DNA of 56,517 bases, from assembly GCA_903842025.1 (NCBI GenBank), contig CAIMKX010000009.1, forward strand, positions 1 through 56,517, written 5' to 3'. Positions 7,596 through 56,517 of the stretch are shown here, in pieces. The notes under the pieces are model-generated. The model saw only the letters and a program-made list of their open reading frames with translations. It was not told the origin of the DNA and searched no databases. Numbering within the stretch: the first letter of the stretch is position 1; each line of letters starts with the position of its first letter. The position numbers and the translations under genes were made by a program. Origin of the DNA: an uncultured bacterium (GTDB lineage: Bacteria > Patescibacteriota > Minisyncoccia > Phycocordibacterales > PALSA-1337).

Positions 7596-9554
7596 CTAAT
7601 TGCCAGTGACTATCTCATACCCCTGCATGAAAGAAGGATCCGTGCTGAACCTGGTGGTCAGAGCGCCTTGCTGACTGCTGAGCGATGTGCCGGTAAAGCT
7701 ATCGGTCGCCGACAAGGAAGCTGGATTGACCAGAGTCGGAGATTGGCCGGTCTGGGTGATGCTCGGAAAAAAGGAGATCTGGAAAGCAACCTCCCGACGC
7801 TTGGAGGACTTGAGGGTATAGGCGGAAACGTTTCCGACATTCCAGGTCACCAGACCGCTGTTCTGGTCATAGCTCACGTCTTCGGAAGCGGGACTGACGG
7901 AATTCAACCATTTGACGTAAGGCGGCAAAGTCGCCGTCACGACAGCCCCGCCGACGGCGCTCGAGGCATTGTCGACGTCCCAGATCACCGTGTAAGTCGT
8001 AGCTTGATCGACTCTGGGCGGTATCGGACCGCTGTTGGTGAACGGACCGCTAGTATGGACTAGGCGTCCGGACAAAGCGACGTTGGAGGAGATCTTGATG
8101 TTCCTGGCCACGGCCGCCGTAACGCTCTGCGAGACGTTGGTCTCCTGCGTCCGGTTGCCGGAGACGCTAGCGACCATGGAGACGACCGGATTGACGATGG
8201 TATTCGCCGACGTGCCGTTGTCTCGCGGAACTATCGAGAAAGTCACCGCGCCCCCTTCCCCGGCCGAAACCGAGGCGAACTCAGAATTGGTCTGTCGGCT
8301 CCAGGTGATGGTGTTGTTGGCAGAATCAAAATAGCCGCTGTCGGGCGTGACCGAGGCCCGATCGTAGGCCGTGCCGGAAAGTTTGACGGAAATCTGCATA
8401 TTGGAGACTGAAACCGGCAGATTGTTGAGCCAGGAAATGATGATTCTTTGGCTCTGGCCAAATTGGCCGATGTGATCACTGGCGGTCTGATCGCTGTCAA
8501 CGGCGATGCTCAATGAAATGAACGGTTTCTGAATGATGATATCCTGCTCAATCGAGGTAAATTGCGTACCTATGACTTTCGGATTGTCAGAGCTCTTAGT
8601 CCCCACGGCAAAATGAAAGGCCCGATTGTCGCTGTCTTCGCCTGTCAAAGAGCCGTGGATCGTGATGGTCTTTTGTCCGCCAGCCGGCAGATCGCCGATG
8701 CTCCAGGTTGCGTTGTCGCCGACGGACGGAGCCGACGAAGAGATGAATTTGTAACCGAAAGGAAAATCTCCTTTGAGCAGGACATTTTTGAGGATCTGCT
8801 GGGAATTGGACTTGAGGCTGACTTTCAGGTCAAATTCCTGGCCTGAGGCGATCTCCTTGTAGGTCGAAACGGCCAAGCTCACCGGCGCGGAGCCGAGAAG
8901 AATGTCATAGGATTTGCTCTTGGTGAAGACTGCAGTCGATCCTTTGACGTTGTAGGTCATGGAGACGACGATCTGTTTCTGGAGATTTTCCTCGCCGTAA
9001 ATGATGGCGGAGACGGTGTCCTTCACAGACTGACCGGCGGTCATATTGCCGATGAATTTGTGGTAGGTTTTCAAAGGTTGGCCGGGGTCGGCGGAGTCGA
9101 TCGAGCCGGCCGGAAAGGAAACTGTGAGATCAGCGAGCTGAAGCTCAATGTTGTTCTTGTTGGTGGCAACGATATCAAAAGAAACCGGTGTCCCCCCGGC
9201 CACCGAGACTGGTCCGCTGATCTGGATGCTGATATTGTCTCCGGAAATGATGTTGGAACCATTCAGGAAAAGATAGGCGCCGAAACCGAGAGCGGCCAAG
9301 CAAAAGATGGCCGAGACAATAAATAATTTTGTGAAAAAAGACATTTTGTGGTGCTCTTGGTATTGCTCGTTGAGGTCAAATCCTGGCTTTGACTCCAATA
9401 CGGGCAATCTATCCCACTCAGTTTTCAATTCACTTCCCTGTCCTGTTTCTGACTGAAGCTTGCGACGAGTGCGCACATCTGGGGCCGTACGCGAGTAGAG
9501 CGATTTCTTGAGCTCATCAATGTAGGAATTGTCTTCAGAAAGAGGCACGCACAT
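7596..9554 (-). CDS. membrane-anchored protein with repeated Ig/CARDB-like beta domains
   Basis: 652 aa. Cytoplasmic N-terminus, single TM (FFTKLFIVSAIFCLAALGFGAYLF), then Ser/Thr/Val-rich beta-repeat ectodomain. Family assignment is tentative. Confidence 0.55.
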   Translation of the reverse strand: MCVPLSEDNSYIDELKKSLYSRTAPDVRTRRKLQSETGQGSELKTEWDRLPVLESKPGFDLNEQYQEHHKMSFFTKLFIVSAIFCLAALGFGAYLFLNGSNIISGDNISIQISGPVSVAGGTPVSFDIVATNKNNIELQLADLTVSFPAGSIDSADPGQPLKTYHKFIGNMTAGQSVKDTVSAIIYGEENLQKQIVVSMTYNVKGSTAVFTKSKSYDILLGSAPVSLAVSTYKEIASGQEFDLKVSLKSNSQQILKNVLLKGDFPFGYKFISSSAPSVGDNATWSIGDLPAGGQKTITIHGSLTGEDSDNRAFHFAVGTKSSDNPKVIGTQFTSIEQDIIIQKPFISLSIAVDSDQTASDHIGQFGQSQRIIISWLNNLPVSVSNMQISVKLSGTAYDRASVTPDSGYFDSANNTITWSRQTNSEFASVSAGEGGAVTFSIVPRDNGTSANTIVNPVVSMVASVSGNRTQETNVSQSVTAAVARNIKISSNVALSGRLVHTSGPFTNSGPIPPRVDQATTYTVIWDVDNASSAVGGAVVTATLPPYVKWLNSVSPASEDVSYDQNSGLVTWNVGNVSAYTLKSSKRREVAFQISFFPSITQTGQSPTLVNPASLSATDSFTGTSLSSQQGALTTRFSTDPSFMQGYEIVTGN

Positions 9555-22405: not shown

Positions 22406-22475
22406 CCTTCAGGCGAGAGAAGTGTCGCGTAATTCGAGCGAAGCGAGAATCGGAGCGACACTTGTCTCGCCGAGG
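22406..22475. repeat. family C palindromic element, copy C1
   Basis: Reads ggcgagagaagtgtcgcgtaattcgagcgaagcgagaatcggagcgacacttgtctcgcc. It is the inverted copy of 23821-23890. Confidence 0.8.
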
Positions 22476-23676: not shown

Positions 23677-23752
23677 GATTATTGGTTATTTAGATTATAA
23701 TAGGTTCATCTTAACTTGAGATGAGTATTTCGGCAACTGACTTTTTCTTTTT

Positions 23753-23963
23753 GTCATTCCCGCGAAGGCGGGAATCCAGTGTCGAACACCAATTACAGAC
23801 TTCTAATATCCCCGCACCCTCTCAGCGAGACAAGTGTCGCTCCGATTCTTCGCTTCGCTCGAATTACGCGACACTTCTCCCGCCTGAGGAGGGTGCGGCT
23901 ACGCGATTCGTTTTTCATATTACTAGTTGTTATATTCTGGATTCCTGCCTTCGCGGGAATGAC
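23753..23963. repeat. family B termini enclosing a family C element (nested composite)
   Basis: gtcattcccgcgaaggcgggaatcc ... ggattcctgccttcgcgggaatgac, with C2 (23821-23890) inside. Confidence 0.75.
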
Positions 23964-23970
23964 ACTAAGA

Positions 23971-24879: not shown

Positions 24880-25923
24880 TCAATCCCAGAATATTCTCTC
24901 GATTTGACCTTGAATTTTTTCGCTTCGGCAATGTTTCAACATTCCAAGATATGAACATATTGAATTCGTAAGCTTTTCCTGGTCTATCAAACCAGTCTCT
25001 AAATCCAACCTTAATCTCGCAATCTTTTTAAGCATCCTTTTCTTCGTGCTTGTTCGGAGAACTTTGTAATGTGGCAAAGAAACGTATCCAAGAAAGTCCG
25101 TCCCCTGATAAATCTTTCTTATTTCTAATTTTCGTGGATGTAAATCCAAATCCATTTCACTTTTAAGAAAATCAGCAATTACCGAAATATGACTTTTAAG
25201 TTGTTCTTTTGATTCATCAAGAATCACAAAATCATCACAATATCTTATGTAATATCTGGCTTTGAGTTTATGTTTAATAAATTGGTCGAATTCATTCATA
25301 TAAATATTGGCAAAAAGCTGACTGGTAACATTACCTAAAGGCAAACCCTTCTCTGGTGTGTGATTAAATGATTCAATAATTTCTTGAATGAAAATAAGCA
25401 ATTTTACGTCCTGAATTTTTCCTGAAATTAGTCGAATTAACTTATCATGATCAACAGAATCAAAGAATTTTCTGATGTCACATTTCAAGACATAAGCTTG
25501 CCGTGTGAAATTTTGCGAAACTTTTCGTGAAAATACCTCCAATCGTTTGACTCCAGCATGAGTCCCTTTTTGATTTCTGGAAGAATAAACGTCATAGATA
25601 AATGAAGAATTAAATACATGGTACAATTTCCGGTGCACCGCCTGGAAAAGCACCCGATCGCGGACACTGGCAATATGAATGGTCCGTTTCTTTGGGTCTT
25701 GAATTATTGAAACCTTGTAAGGATCAAGTCTGAATCGGCCATTTACCAAATCCTCATGTAATATAAAAAGGTTTTCTTCCAAACGAAGATTGAATTCAGC
25801 CACATCTTTATTTGATTTCTTACCTTTACTGAATTCTTTCCAGGCGGCAAAAATATTTTCGATGGAAATTACATCACAAAAATCACAACTATTATGACCC
25901 CCCCCCGACACCACATTGCCCAT
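24880..25923 (-). CDS. diversity-generating retroelement reverse transcriptase
   Basis: RT motifs including LPLGNVTSQ ([I/L]GxxxSQ, DGR-type motif 4) and YCDDF (YxDD). The 347-aa protein has no maturase or endonuclease domains. It is adjacent to the TR/VR pair. Confidence 0.9.
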   Translation of the reverse strand: MGNVVSGGGHNSCDFCDVISIENIFAAWKEFSKGKKSNKDVAEFNLRLEENLFILHEDLVNGRFRLDPYKVSIIQDPKKRTIHIASVRDRVLFQAVHRKLYHVFNSSFIYDVYSSRNQKGTHAGVKRLEVFSRKVSQNFTRQAYVLKCDIRKFFDSVDHDKLIRLISGKIQDVKLLIFIQEIIESFNHTPEKGLPLGNVTSQLFANIYMNEFDQFIKHKLKARYYIRYCDDFVILDESKEQLKSHISVIADFLKSEMDLDLHPRKLEIRKIYQGTDFLGYVSLPHYKVLRTSTKKRMLKKIARLRLDLETGLIDQEKLTNSICSYLGMLKHCRSEKIQGQIERIFWD

Positions 25924-26263
25924 TATTCATGCGATTAGGATACTGCATAAGGATATTTATTGCACCAGTAATAGGTTTTCAAAACGCGATAAGCTTGGTA
26001 TCCATGCGACTATCGAATCTTTGTGTATAGAAATATTATCTTTGGCAGTCGAGTCGGCATTCAAACCTGGATATCAGAAAAAGATCACCCTGGAATCTTT
26101 GCGGCTGAAAATAGAAGTGCTCAAACATTTGGTAAGAACGGAAAACGAGTTGGAAATTATTGATCAAAGAACATATCTCCGTATCGAAAAACAACTTGTC
26201 GAAATCTCAAAAATGACAAATGGCTGGATCACTTACGTAACGCAAAAAGAGTCTTCAAAATGA
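25916..26263 (+). CDS. avd: Avd-like four-helix-bundle accessory protein (opposite strand to RT)
   Basis: 115 aa, helical. The C-terminal LVEISKMTNGWITYVTQK resembles the bAvd C-terminus (..EVGRILGSWIARVNRK, as I recall it) and 23S-IVS/Avd family proteins. Confidence 0.65.
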   Translation: MPIIHAIRILHKDIYCTSNRFSKRDKLGIHATIESLCIEILSLAVESAFKPGYQKKITLESLRLKIEVLKHLVRTENELEIIDQRTYLRIEKQLVEISKMTNGWITYVTQKESSK

Positions 26264-26278
26264 AAACTCCTTGCGAGA

Positions 26279-26395
26279 AACTTCCTGGCGAGCCCGCAAG
26301 TTCGGATTCCTGTTGTCCGGATTGTTCCAGTTGACCTTGAACTTGCCGCCGTTCCAGTTCGCGTTCGGGACGTTGCCGTCCGAATTGCGGGAACC
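26279..26395 (-). repeat. DGR template repeat (TR)
   Basis: 117 bp, non-coding, homologous to 26627-26743. Rich in AAC/AAT codons when read in the VR frame. Confidence 0.85.
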
Positions 26396-26567
26396 CTCGT
26401 ATTACCCTTCCCCTTCCACGTCTCCGAATGTCATTCGCATAACATTCTGTGTCTGCTCTGGTATTGCGAGCTTTGTATGGAAAAGAGTAAGCAGTTTCTA
26501 AATTATGGACAAATTGTTATAAGATTAAAATAATCAAACCAATTTAACAGTCCTTGTCACATTATAC

Positions 26568-26598
26568 AAAAAATGCCCCCGCTTTGGTAAACGGGGGC
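26568..26598 (-). terminator. GC hairpin plus U-tract just downstream of VR and the target stop codon
   Basis: Minus strand reads GCCCCCG-UUUACCAAAG-CGGGGGC followed by AUUUUUU, 20 nt after the stop at 26618. Confidence 0.7.
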
Positions 26599-26617
26599 AA
26601 GTGAACAAGTTAAAAGA

Positions 26618-27451
26618 TTAAAGTGTAACTGCCTGGCGAGCCCGCAAGTTCGGAAACCTGTCGTCCGGATCGTACCAGTTGACCCAGAACCGGCCGCCGT
26701 AACAGCTCGCGCTCGGGACGCCGCCGACCGAAAGGCGGGAACCAGAACATAATGTCCAATTCCTCAAATCCAAATGGTTCCCAGTCTCCATAAGGTATAC
26801 GAGCTCGAGAAGTTCGCGCTCAAGGAGCGTGACCGTCTTCAACTTCGATTCTTTCTTGGAGATTTGAATGGCTGAGAGGTTTATTAGCTCCTCATCGGCT
26901 TCTGCTACATCCCGGACCCAGATGGCATAAATGCCTCTACTGGGATGACGCTCATCTTTTTCGGCCGGAACCGCTGCATCCAGATCGTTCGAATATCGCC
27001 AACAGTTGAATGATGCGTCGCAGGCGTCATAGACACGATTGTTCGTGAGGGTTGTGTCGCCGATCACGAGAAGACGGTCGTAGTCTTTCTGGCGTTTGGG
27101 GATGATGAGTCCGGAAGTCGTAAACGACCACTTGAGCGACCTGAACATCGCTTCCATGCCGGCAACTTGCTCATCGGTAGAGCGCTCGACGCAAGGTTTG
27201 GGTGTTTCGCGAAGGATTTCGATGCGGGGGCGTGATGGTGAAACCTCTTTTGCAGAAGTTTCTGAAACCATTACCGACGCGTCGGAAAAACCTCTCAAAA
27301 GTCGTGCCGCGATCTCTTCACGACCTTCGTTGGTCACAAACCGATCCACGATTTCCTGAGAGATAACTCCGACATTGCCAGCGATTAAACTGACAAATTT
27401 AAGTCGGCGTGCCGTTTGCTCATCAACAACTATCGAGGGTGCCTTATTCAT
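26618..27451 (-). CDS. DGR variable (target) protein
   Basis: 277-aa ORF whose last ~40 codons are the VR. The C-terminus reads ..CSGSRLSVGGVPSASCYGGRFWVNWYDPDDRFPNLRARQAVTL. Confidence 0.85.
   Translation of the reverse strand: MNKAPSIVVDEQTARRLKFVSLIAGNVGVISQEIVDRFVTNEGREEIAARLLRGFSDASVMVSETSAKEVSPSRPRIEILRETPKPCVERSTDEQVAGMEAMFRSLKWSFTTSGLIIPKRQKDYDRLLVIGDTTLTNNRVYDACDASFNCWRYSNDLDAAVPAEKDERHPSRGIYAIWVRDVAEADEELINLSAIQISKKESKLKTVTLLERELLELVYLMETGNHLDLRNWTLCSGSRLSVGGVPSASCYGGRFWVNWYDPDDRFPNLRARQAVTL
26627..26743 (-). repeat. DGR variable repeat (VR)
   Basis: Differs from TR at 19 positions. Eighteen of these correspond to A in TR on the coding (minus) strand. Confidence 0.85.
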
Positions 27452-27585: not shown

Positions 27586-27933
27586 CTAAACCACCCGATT
27601 TTCCTCCATGCGATAGATTATTTTGCCGTGAGATTCGATTTGCTTTTTAAGCTCCTCATTTGTGAGTCTGGAGAAATCCAGGACATCGACGTTGTAGAGG
27701 AAAGATGCGGCATTATTCAGGAATTCACGGAGGCTGCCAGCGGTATTCTCCTTCAAATCCCCTTTTAGGGCGATATCGATATCAGATGTTCTTTTGAAGC
27801 TTCCTAGAGCTCGAGAGCCGAAAATCAGCGCCTGATCGATGTCCGCGTAATGACCAATGGCGTTGACGATGAAACCGAAATGTTCGGCCTCAAGGCCAAA
27901 TTCATTTACTGAGTGATCCTTTAAGGTATTCAT
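27586..27933 (-). CDS. minimal nucleotidyltransferase (MNT/KNTase-type) protein
   Basis: GSRALGSFKRTSDIDIAL matches the GSx10DxD motif of the Pol-beta superfamily. Length 115 aa. Confidence 0.8.
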   Translation of the reverse strand: MNTLKDHSVNEFGLEAEHFGFIVNAIGHYADIDQALIFGSRALGSFKRTSDIDIALKGDLKENTAGSLREFLNNAASFLYNVDVLDFSRLTNEELKKQIESHGKIIYRMEENRVV

Positions 27934-28036: not shown

Positions 28037-28792
28037 ATGGATGAAGCATTACAAATGGACGGGATCGTCCGTTGCGGCCGATACGCCTTCGGCCCAAACC
28101 GTTTTCATTATTGCGGACCGGACGCCAGCCGCGAGATCAAAGCCTGTATTGACAACAACATTAACGATTATCCTTTGAAAAAACTGCTCGAACAGTTCAA
28201 AAACCTGTTTCCGTACCTTAGATTGATAGCCACGGAAAATAAAATTGCCGATCCTTTCGATAATAGGGTCGTGGAAGCTTATTGGCTTGGAAATTATTAT
28301 CTCAAGAATGTCGAAAAGCGGCCTTACGACCAATTCATAAGAACAGGAATCAGAGCTAAAGAAAAAATGAAATCTCGGGAATTCGACTGGCTTGAGGAAA
28401 AAATCGGCCAGGGCGCTCTTCCCCATCACTCTTTTCACGTATTCAATGTCTGGGCAAAAACCATAGATTTGCCTGGCGGCGAAGCCAAGGCGTTATTCAA
28501 TATGGACGAATGCCGGATCAGTTCCGGCCGGATACAATCGACAAATGGCCCGGAAATCATGGTCAAGACCGAGCCCCTTCTTTATTCCCAAGGTAAAATT
28601 TTTCTGGGCCAACCTGTTTCGAGGACAATCACAAGAAAATTGGAGGCTGAATATGATATAGAAAATTTGAAACCAGGCCAGATAATTTCCATTCATTGGA
28701 GCCAGCCATGCGAAGTCATTACCGAAGCACAGGCGACGCGTTTGCGTCAATTCACTATGGCTAGCATAAAATTCGCAAACCAGACAATGTAA
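28037..28792 (+). CDS. conserved hypothetical protein
   Basis: Clean 251-aa ORF (CGRYAFGPNRFHYCGPD motif). I cannot assign a family with certainty. Confidence 0.55.
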   Translation: MDEALQMDGIVRCGRYAFGPNRFHYCGPDASREIKACIDNNINDYPLKKLLEQFKNLFPYLRLIATENKIADPFDNRVVEAYWLGNYYLKNVEKRPYDQFIRTGIRAKEKMKSREFDWLEEKIGQGALPHHSFHVFNVWAKTIDLPGGEAKALFNMDECRISSGRIQSTNGPEIMVKTEPLLYSQGKIFLGQPVSRTITRKLEAEYDIENLKPGQIISIHWSQPCEVITEAQATRLRQFTMASIKFANQTM

Positions 28793-28807: not shown

Positions 28808-29941
28808 TTACAGTTTGGTGCTCCACCTCGCGAATATCCCGCACGGCAGTAATCTAGATATTGACCATTCGGCTCTGAGAGCCTCAGACTCGATGAGTTG
28901 ATAATTAATGGTCAACGGCATTTCAGCTTTTTTCATTTTTTCGTTGTCATTTTCCATTTTGATTTTTGATTTTTCAATTCCTGATTCTTGTACCGCCAAC
29001 TCCCCTGTTTCAATATCACCGCCAAGTTTTTCCTTGAGCTTGAGCAAGATATTCTCATAAGCCAGCGCAGAGTAGCCGGAAGCATAACCGTTTATCAGAA
29101 AGAAAAGTGGCTTGTCGCTGAGAAGTTTCAAACAATCCTCGACCAAAGGCAGGAAATCTTCCTCAATCTTCCAGACTTCATTTTCCGGACCATGGCCGAA
29201 GGCCGGCGGATCCATGATGATGCCGTCATACTTCCTTTCGCGCTTGATCTCCCTTTTTACGAAAGATCGGGCGTCTTCCAGAATCCAACGGATTGGTTTC
29301 TTGTCCAGACCGCTTAGCTCCGCATTCTCCCTGGCCCAAGTGACCGCCGCCTTTGAACCGTCGACATGGACGACTTTGGCTCCGGCCTGGGCGCAGGTCA
29401 GTGAGGCGCCACCTGTATAGCCGAAGAGGTTTAGAATTTCAACATCTCGGTTTTGGATTTGACCACCAGACTCTTGCTTGTCATTCCCGCGAAAGCGGGA
29501 ATCCAGTGTTGAATCGTTGGCGCCATTTCCAGCAACACTGGATTCCCGCTTTCGCGGGAATGACACAGTGTTTGCGGATGCGTCATCTTTTGCACCAATG
29601 ACATTTCGCATCCACTTCCAATTTTCCGCCTGTTCCGGAAACAACCCCACATGCTTGAACGGCGTCGGTTTGATCGTAAACTTAAGCCCGACAAACTCGA
29701 TCGGCCAACTATTGGGAGTATTGGGTTTAATAGTCCAGCCTCCTTTAGTTTCTTCCCTACTGAATACACCATCAGCCTTTTTCCATTCAGTGATGTCTAA
29801 TCGTTTAGCCCAAAGCGCCTGTGGATCGGGACGGGAAAGGACGACTTTTCCGAATCGTTCCAGCTTTTCGCCATCGCCGGAATCGAGAAGCTCGTAGTCA
29901 GCTGAAGGCTCGGTTATTAAGATGTTGGTGGTTTTATTCAT
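28808..29941 (-). CDS. class I SAM-dependent (RlmI/RlmK-like) methyltransferase with in-frame palindromic-repeat insertion
   Basis: Motif I LNLFGYTGGASL and motif IV IIMDPPAFG. The segment SFPRKRESS...LDSRFRGNDK is encoded by repeat B6. Confidence 0.8.
   Translation of the reverse strand: MNKTTNILITEPSADYELLDSGDGEKLERFGKVVLSRPDPQALWAKRLDITEWKKADGVFSREETKGGWTIKPNTPNSWPIEFVGLKFTIKPTPFKHVGLFPEQAENWKWMRNVIGAKDDASANTVSFPRKRESSVAGNGANDSTLDSRFRGNDKQESGGQIQNRDVEILNLFGYTGGASLTCAQAGAKVVHVDGSKAAVTWARENAELSGLDKKPIRWILEDARSFVKREIKRERKYDGIIMDPPAFGHGPENEVWKIEEDFLPLVEDCLKLLSDKPLFFLINGYASGYSALAYENILLKLKEKLGGDIETGELAVQESGIEKSKIKMENDNEKMKKAEMPLTINYQLIESEALRAEWSISRLLPCGIFARWSTKL
29480..29564. repeat. family B short element (B6) inside the methyltransferase CDS
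   Basis: Reads gtcattcccgcgaaagcgggaatccagtgttgaa..ttccagcaacactggattcccgctttcgcgggaatgac, and is read through in frame. Confidence 0.85.
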
Positions 29942-56141: not shown

Positions 56142-56517
56142 GGGTATTGATTATCTAATAAATCAACAATACCCTAGTGTGAGATACACAAAACCCAACA
56201 CTAGGAGGCCTTGCGACCCATATACCGGTTTCCCGATATAACGTTGAACACGCCCTAATGCTGGGGTTAATGTGTTCAACGATTTTCGACCATACCTTAT
56301 GCAAATCACACAAGGGTTAGGTCTACGATATTCAGTTGTGTCTTCAGTGTACGACTTGGAACAGGTCTTGTCTACCGCAGTCTCCTCCCATACATAATGA
56401 GCCTCAAATAGTTCCACTGTCCCAGGGAAATGAGCTCAATTTCCCTTGAGCTGTGGATAACGGCATGATTGATGAATTATGAACATCATCATGAACGATT
56501 CTCACATAGTGAGCGTA

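Follow-up and report, generated by a model that had tools for sequence, protein, structure and literature searches.

Patescibacteria are the bacterial lineage richest in diversity-generating retroelements (DGRs), which are common in these ultra-small organisms. We analysed one such element in a 56,517-nt stretch of DNA, here called the window, which is contig CAIMKX010000009.1 of GenBank assembly GCA_903842025.1 from an uncultured patescibacterium. [quoted passage not shown] Along the minus strand the order is target gene with VR, predicted terminator, predicted promoter, a leader of about 160 nt, TR, a terminator-like hairpin, avd and RT; avd lies on the opposite strand and converges on TR, and RT diverges from avd (Table 1). 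Within the 231-nt gap between VR and TR there are a conserved -10 box and, running into TR, the structured RNA of the leader, and the comparative evidence strongly supports this leader as a conserved RNA structure and a hallmark of the inverted-avd architecture. An earlier note on this DNA had interpreted the locus as a DGR, an interpretation that our analysis supports, yet it took the gap as empty and included neither the promoter-like site nor the structured RNA. The DGR clade of this locus has thousands of members, therefore the locus matters little on its own as a DGR; the cassette is already known, and the leader RNA, which is not in Rfam 15, is its new part.

The leader RNA upstream of the template repeat

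In the alignment of the interval from 58 loci a conserved TA.AAT box is seen, and after it an extended stretch of conserved non-coding sequence reaches into TR. In the window this -10 box occupies positions 26566-26561, and its T1, A2, A4 and T6 are invariant in alignment A4. For the long form of the leader, RNAalifold applied to 35 sequences predicted 48 base pairs in 5-6 helices, 45 of them with compensatory double changes. The proportion of paired cells was 92.6%, compared with 66.6% after shuffling (0/500) and 40-52% when the 3' partner was slid, and the covariation score reached 0.76 vs 0.26 and 0.13-0.20, respectively. The window's subgroup carries a shorter leader, for which 17 sequences including the window yielded 37 base pairs, 30 of them compensatory, with 92.4% of cells paired (72.2% shuffled, 0/500) and a covariation score of 0.68 (0.28 shuffled). 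Many of the conserved pairs are G-U, and the structure is thus specific to the TR-sense strand. Its closing helix encloses the conserved hairpins plus the CGGUGAnACGGA motif.

The distribution of the leader was followed with a covariance model built solely from the 3' domains of the long form, with the window's subgroup left out. The model matched 54 of 80 related loci from genomes and 49 of 80 from metagenomes (103/160), with a single match in each locus, in every case just upstream of TR and on the strand of RT. It also matched the window at 26399-26509(-) over the full model (19 bits, E=6e-4, in 1.1 kb with filters off), and a search of the whole window with default filters returned no match. 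For comparison we used 69 DGR loci from viral contigs, i.e., nine with RTs of the same clade and 60 more distant ones as an outgroup. All nine same-clade loci have an inverted avd and eight of them carry the leader RNA, while in the 60 distant DGRs avd is co-oriented wherever it was detected and the leader was found in none.

The leader in the window and 10 related loci remained unmatched by the 4227 models of Rfam 15 at both gathering and permissive thresholds, and the permissive matches at the cassette in these loci were chance, terminator-like ones only. [quoted passage not shown] We did not find such a leader described in the literature, and a 2026 preprint on coevolutionary mining of non-coding elements might already mention it.

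Predicted transcript ends and pairing at the template repeat

A hairpin with a T-run follows TR in 104 of 109 loci, compared with 34 for the opposite strand and 20 in the shuffled control; in the window the consensus scanner missed it because its stem is GC-poor. This stem-loop is predicted to terminate the TR transcript and is possibly, by analogy, the counterpart of the Avd-binding stem-loop that in the Bordetella phage comes right after TR (Handa et al., bioRxiv 10.1101/2023.10.23.563531). The synonymous sites of avd show no extra constraint toward the 3' end of the gene. An RNA antisense to avd, resembling the Bordetella spacer (Sp) RNA, was considered and rejected, given the lack of extra synonymous conservation in avd and the hairpin after TR in those 104 loci. 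The hairpin and the unconstrained synonymous sites argue that the template RNA does not run antisense through avd, and it appears to be a discrete transcript of about 315 nt composed of the leader, TR and the 3' hairpin.

The leader and the 3' edge of TR are complementary. The duplex between the leader 7-mer and the TR edge has at least 6 of 7 base pairs in 18 of 20 loci with a short or intermediate leader, and its compensatory variants include UAAAACU/AGUUUUA, UGAAACU/AGUUUCA, CGAAACU/AGUUUCG, AGAAAUU/AAUUUCU and AACACU/AGUGUU. On average 6.35 Watson-Crick pairs are formed, compared with 5.45±0.15 when the tails were permuted among loci (0/5000). The long form has an equivalent duplex of AAAAUGAAGAU with UCUUCAUUU, plus UUG with CAA, whose mean energy is -8.46 kcal/mol vs -7.15±0.21 permuted (0/300). 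RNAalifold did not call the leader:tail duplex on the full transcript because the tail columns were misaligned, and the duplex was therefore examined separately.

The TR base just 5' of the duplex is an adenine in 18/18 loci, and VR differs from it in all 18, with C in 12 and with GC or GT replacing the A in four, independent of codon phase. Set against the clade rates (56.6% of adenines changed, A-to-C making up 19% of the changes), this pattern has P=3.6e-5 and 1.5e-5. In the window the junction adenine is 26283 (VR C at 26631), the 3'-most TR/VR mismatch and the outlying one among those listed in the earlier note. It may be the first templated position, or the product may take up a G or C from the leader at this point. 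That the 3' flank of VR is copied from the leader and not from TR was considered and rejected: where the leader and the TR tail differ (L023 and L027), the flank follows TR. Hence a leader origin could apply to no more than the base or bases at the junction.

The cassette and its target gene

The repeat pair described before was reproduced with its coordinates. TR and VR align without gaps over 117 nt at an offset of 348, and an independent repeat finder ranked them as the top direct repeat of the region. Eighteen of the 19 mismatches are T on the plus strand, i.e., minus-strand A in TR, and their positions agree exactly with those listed earlier; the lone other mismatch, 26354 (minus-strand G to T), adjoins an A site. 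With 32 adenines among 117 TR positions, the hypergeometric probability that 18 or more of the 19 mismatches hit adenines is 1.2e-11, so the bias on which the earlier note relied holds under a proper alignment. The adenine changes affect nine first, nine second and no third codon positions, in line with the codon positions 1 and 2 given earlier, and TR read in the VR frame contains 10 AAY codons. The window is typical in this respect: across 108 related loci taken together, VR differs from TR at 56.6% of the TR adenines vs 1.1% of other bases, and 94.7% of mismatches fall at adenines. The GC-rich 3' block of 23 nt, identical in both repeats as reported (VR 26632-26654, TR 26284-26306), resembles an initiation of mutagenic homing (IMH) site; VR and TR diverge after another four nucleotides, and a GC-rich hairpin lies downstream at 26599-26574. 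This hairpin is predicted to be the terminator of the target gene and is also a candidate for the inverted repeat known downstream of IMH in other DGRs. No VR besides this one was found across the window.

The RT open reading frame (ORF) is present as described earlier, with the motifs LGNVTSQ and YCDD located within LPLGNVTSQLFANIYM and IRYCDDFVIL. Its closest solved relative is the Bordetella phage bRT (8ub7_A, 328 aa, E=5e-39; entries 8ub7-8ube), and because these entries also contain Avd, they represent the complex of the Bordetella bRT. In the same PDB comparison, group II intron RTs are 22 orders of magnitude behind (best E=5e-17). Judged by its motifs, which fit the pattern [I/L/V]GxxxSQ in motif 4 and YxDD of the DGR clade, and by its closest PDB relative, the RT groups with this clade. 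The assumption that TR and VR are an ordinary duplication beside an unrelated retron or group II intron RT could draw on the presence of group II intron and retron models among the NCBIfam matches, but all of these are far under their cutoffs, and a search with Rfam found neither intron RNA domains nor a retron msr/msd. Together with bRT as the best solved relative, the mismatch bias (P~1e-11), the adjacent avd and the same cassette with A-biased repeats in about 108 loci, this makes such a duplication extremely improbable.

Over its full length the avd product matches Pfam bAvd (E=9.8e-10, 39.3 bits, cutoff 40) and NCBIfam DivGenRetAVD (E=9.5e-14, 51.6 bits, cutoff 80). The two best PDB matches of the Avd profile built for the clade are the Bordetella phage proteins 4dwl (Bbp7) and 8ub7_B (Avd), both weak. 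The stop codon of avd is 16 nt from the TR end and its start abuts that of RT. The earlier note had called the DGR complete; all the sequence-level features of a DGR are indeed present, but the note overlooked avd (25916-26263, plus strand), and it is the presence of this gene that completes the element. An inverted avd occurs in all 75 loci that have sufficient upstream sequence among the 80 related Patescibacteria genome loci (RT identity 45-63%), and about 58 of them have a TR just upstream of this gene, the TR adenines being on the strand of RT. A chromosomal element is indicated by the genes around it (folD, SIMPL, nusG, secE, L11) and by the conserved RT-folD synteny. Its relatives come from Patescibacteria metagenome-assembled genomes.

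The inverted avd was considered as a novel layout and rejected, as Wu et al. 2018 (PMC5758913) had already defined it as Architecture B3, TR-(avd)-RT; this architecture accounts for about 90% of CPR DGRs and has avd in reverse orientation. The DGRs that Roux et al. 2021 (PMC8144416) assign to clade 2 are cellular and restricted to Patescibacteria, and their targets mostly lack recognisable domains or membrane anchors. The locus is thus very probably a chromosomal Patescibacteria (CPR) DGR of Architecture B3 and clade 2, and as a DGR it is an ordinary new example of a published architecture and clade. Some related loci are arranged differently: L021 contains a second DGR with a co-oriented avd at 7650-8634, about 4 kb from the inverted-avd one, L033 combines one TR with two VRs, and in L036 and L060 VR is on the opposite strand, about 1.3 kb off.

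The divergent avd/RT junction has features of its own. A poly-G tract of 7-13 nt, mostly 9-10 nt, is found there in 116/161 related DGR loci, some 11-17 nt upstream of the avd codon that is aligned first; it precedes the RT ATG in most loci, and in the window's subgroup it lies inside the RT frame (SGGG). The tract might act as an on/off switch through strand slippage or represent a shared 5' element. The only single-nucleotide polymorphisms (SNPs) relative to two sister assemblies, compared over 7 kb and 1.6 kb, 25913 and 25921, both fall inside the 11 nt that separate the avd start from this tract, and they could be sequencing errors beside a homopolymer. The SNP at 25921 in the sister strain L164 is synonymous in avd and removes the annotated ATG of RT, which suggests that the actual RT start may be the GTG at 25914 or 25911. 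Separately, a 605-aa gene call (P0125) joins FolD domains to an RT of the same clade (66% identity); this call, which probably reflects read-through or a gene-calling artefact, shows the RT-folD adjacency in another genome.

The target ORF of 277 aa exists as previously described, VR forms its end, and the peptides given earlier for TR and VR both match the translations. Its 44 homologues are all uncharacterised Patescibacteria proteins, and in this family the N-terminus is variable, the C-terminal domain of about 200 aa is conserved and variation is focused in the last 40 residues. The protein has no Pfam or NCBIfam match; a PDB profile search, a Pfam search with 35 homologues and a BFVD fold search also found nothing. 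Kyte-Doolittle hydropathy over 19 residues peaks at 1.35, so that no transmembrane segment is predicted, in agreement with the earlier claim. The AlphaFold2 model made from the family alignment has a mean pLDDT (predicted local distance difference test) of 87.9, exceeding 90 over residues ~80-277. Foldseek against the PDB gave no significant match (best E~0.7, TM scores <=0.45), and its weak top matches are nearly all of the C-type lectin (CLec) fold, i.e., Mtd, TaqVP, TvpA, formylglycine-generating enzymes, EgtB and snake-venom lectins. Mtd, TaqVP and TvpA are all three bacterial DGR variable proteins with structures. The model suggests that the target likely has a divergent CLec fold.

Table 1. 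Features of the DGR and its leader RNA (positions in the window)
Feature	Position	Strand	Details
DGR reverse transcriptase	24880..25923	-	347-aa ORF; Pfam RVT_1 E=4.5e-25
G9 homopolymer (C9 on avd strand)	25900..25908	-	divergent avd/RT junction, within RT codons 6-9
avd, accessory variability determinant	25916..26263	+	115 aa, TTG start; opposite strand to RT, TR and VR
Stem-loop and U-run directly 3' of TR, GCAAGGAGUUUUC-AUUUU-GAAGACUCUUUUUGC	26242..26274	-	spans avd stop codon
TR 3' edge	26276..26283	-	AGUUUCU (26282-26276) pairs with leader AGAAACU (26499-26493)
Template repeat (TR)	26279..26395	-	117 nt, 32 adenines, 10 in-frame AAY codons
Structured 5' leader of TR transcript, short form	26396..26555	-	RNAalifold covariation
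Leader motif CGGAGACGUGGA	26426-26415	-	short-form alignment
Leader hairpins	26471-26455 and 26447-26426	-	short-form alignment
Leader closing helix, 12 bp	26490-26479 with 26413-26402	-	other strand ends 6 nt before TR
Leader 7-mer AGAAACU, then invariant GC (26492-26491)	26499-26493	-	short-form alignment
Leader helix P1	26552-26508	-	short-form alignment
Promoter-like site TTACCA-18-TATAAT	26561..26590	-	10/12 matches by scanner; overlaps target terminator hairpin
GC-rich hairpin and T-run	26574..26599	-	11-bp stem, 7 GC pairs, then TTTTTTG; downstream of target stop codon
DGR target gene	26618..27451	-	277 aa; variable helical N-terminal ~75 aa, conserved ~200-aa domain ending in VR
Variable repeat (VR)	26627..26743	-	last ~40 codons of target gene; IMH-like block 26632-26654

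Proposed role of the leader, activity of the element and known systems

[quoted passage not shown] Its TR requires about 20 nt upstream as well as the 140-nt downstream Sp RNA; Sp53-56 pairs with TR118-121, priming occurs from A56, G57 and C58 come next, and Sp59-70 forms a 'stop' duplex with a segment just upstream of TR, after which the RT-binding elements follow (Handa et al., bioRxiv 10.1101/2023.10.23.563531). By analogy with this order, we infer that, in function, the leader corresponds to the Sp RNA of Bordetella, and we regard its mechanistic role as a well-motivated hypothesis. A non-coding RNA of about 315 nt (leader, TR and 3' hairpin) would be transcribed from the conserved -10 box, and the RT-Avd complex would bind it, reverse-transcribe TR and misincorporate opposite adenines. 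The cDNA would then replace VR and recode as many as ~13 Asn/Lys/Asp codons at the face with which the probable CLec-fold domain would bind its ligand. Within the RNA, AGAAACU would pair with the TR 3' edge, the invariant G-C would come next and the 12-bp helix would close just upstream of TR. The proposed order is thus a primer-like strand, G-C, a 12-bp 'stop' helix around the hairpins, TR, the back-pairing tail and the terminator hairpin, with cDNA synthesis starting at or beside A26283.

We tentatively extend this proposal to the whole Patescibacteria DGR clade, where a leader of 160-230 nt upstream of TR would recruit RT-Avd and position the primer, as a circular permutation of the Bordetella DGR RNA; we give this extension slightly less than an even chance. 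Such a permutation would explain why the inverted avd stands directly after TR, in the position of Sp, and the avd/RT poly-G tract may additionally act as an on/off switch. If true, it would account for the puzzling inverted-avd architecture, test which RNA-protein contacts are essential, and offer a compact promoter-to-terminator RNA of ~315 nt for reconstitution and for the engineering of targeted mutagenesis. It would also provide a covariance model that improves the annotation of Patescibacteria DGRs, including the strand and boundaries of TR.

The leader could instead be a cis-regulatory 5' untranslated region (UTR) or an independent small RNA, e.g., a riboswitch-like element or attenuator for TR/RT expression, acting outside reverse transcription. 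It sits between the promoter-like site and TR as a 5' UTR would, its link to RT-Avd is drawn here from sequence, and for other DGRs Handa et al. assign the required elements to the region downstream of TR. However, the leader is restricted to inverted-avd DGRs that have no room for an Sp RNA (8/9 vs 0/60), it approaches TR within 6 nt, and one of its strands pairs, with covariation, with the TR 3' edge. Moreover, the transcript appears to end right after TR, which leaves no downstream ORF to regulate, and avd bears no overlaid constraint. We therefore consider a purely regulatory leader quite unlikely.

Several points nevertheless weigh against the explanation of the locus as a whole, i.e., as an active DGR with a permuted leader. 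The promoter, the terminator and the RNA ends are predictions from sequence, and the covariance model match in the window is modest (19 bits) and seen only with filters off. The junction A/C could equally be a fixed difference between IMH and IMH* and not an initiation footprint. From single-sequence folding, Handa et al. (bioRxiv 10.1101/2023.10.23.563531) located Sp-like elements of CPR DGRs downstream of TR, a placement that fits the 3' hairpin found here but not the wholly 5' location of the other elements. Both Avd scores are slightly under the curated cutoffs, and the CLec fold is drawn from non-significant Foldseek matches (best E~0.7). Finally, VR and TR are unchanged in all the assemblies recovered.

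These assemblies include contigs from at least five samples with the same or a >90% identical RT, which match the window over 1.6-7 kb bar single SNPs. The invariance of VR across strains, which the earlier note had named as evidence against a DGR, is thus formally observed but carries no weight: the assemblies are one clone (0-1 SNP in 3-7 kb) and hence uninformative on activity. The locus might be a DGR relic whose genes and repeats are intact and whose VR, fixed long ago, is no longer diversified. The identity of VR and TR in all the samples would fit this, as would the 90% cluster of the target, a single sequence on 12 contigs, and the loss of the annotated RT ATG in one sister strain. Against the relic, a single clone has no power to detect change, the three ORFs are intact with the catalytic YCDD kept, and the leader helices, promoter box and terminator are all preserved. 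Further, 18 of 32 TR adenines are changed and one non-A base is, which implies little drift after homing, and TR retains its 10 in-frame AAY codons. A relic is therefore rather unlikely, albeit with a real residual chance. Because all the parts are intact and a single non-adenine mismatch is present, the element is probably functional, and we infer that it is currently active.

The window contains other features outside the DGR. A full-length match to Rfam LOOT RNA (RF03000), an orphan structured RNA, lies at 56205-56323 (-) with 79.8 bits (gathering 46.4) and E=1.9e-13. Palindromic repeats TGTCATTCCCGCGAA[A/G]GCGGGAATCCAGTGT, similar to repetitive extragenic palindromes or miniature inverted-repeat transposable elements (REP/MITE), occur at 23746-23795, 23921-23970, 29479-29511 and 29533-29565, and further REP/MITE-like repeats are at 22409-22446 / 23850-23887. 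An inverted REP/MITE-like pair is in frame within an S-adenosylmethionine (SAM)-methyltransferase-like ORF (28808..29941), where it encodes FPRKRESS...RFRGND. Adjoining the target gene, 27586-27933 (-) encodes a nucleotidyltransferase of the Pol-beta type (115 aa, Pfam Polbeta E=1e-13), a kind of protein that in toxin-antitoxin modules usually goes together with a HEPN partner; DUF6390 comes next at 28037-28792.

Compared with known systems, the cassette does not differ from the CPR DGRs of Architecture B3 and clade 2. It shares their gene order and orientations, with avd reversed between TR and RT, as well as their chromosomal location and restriction to Patescibacteria, with an RT identity to such loci of 45-72%, and its target likewise has no recognisable domain, signal peptide or transmembrane segment. 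The RT-1...RT-19 motifs of Rfam and Weinberg 2017, in which RT-10 is the Sp of Bordetella phage BPP-1 (PMC5737381), are also structured RNAs beside an RT gene with a presumed role in a retroelement, but none of them matches the leader in the window or in the 10 related loci. The msr-msd of retrons has the topology proposed here, in that the priming and structural RNA is 5' of the template and a duplex of the 5' and 3' flanks encloses the template; unlike a retron, the locus has a DGR RT, a protein-coding template repeat with a VR partner, and Avd. The BPP-1 element (mtd-avd-TR-Sp-brt) differs in several respects. Here avd is inverted in the place of Sp, with no Sp of about 140 nt between TR and RT, an interval in which Rfam also gave no match to the Bordetella-type Sp (RT-10); the structured RNA is 5' of TR, the transcript seems to stop right after TR, and the element is chromosomal and not phage-borne. 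Both elements nevertheless have homologous RT and Avd, adenine-specific transfer from TR to VR, VR at the C-terminus of a probable CLec-fold protein, and a GC-rich IMH-like block with a downstream hairpin. Their RNAs are alike in possessing a strand that pairs with the 3' part of TR, then G-C, and then a helix strand whose partner lies just upstream of TR.

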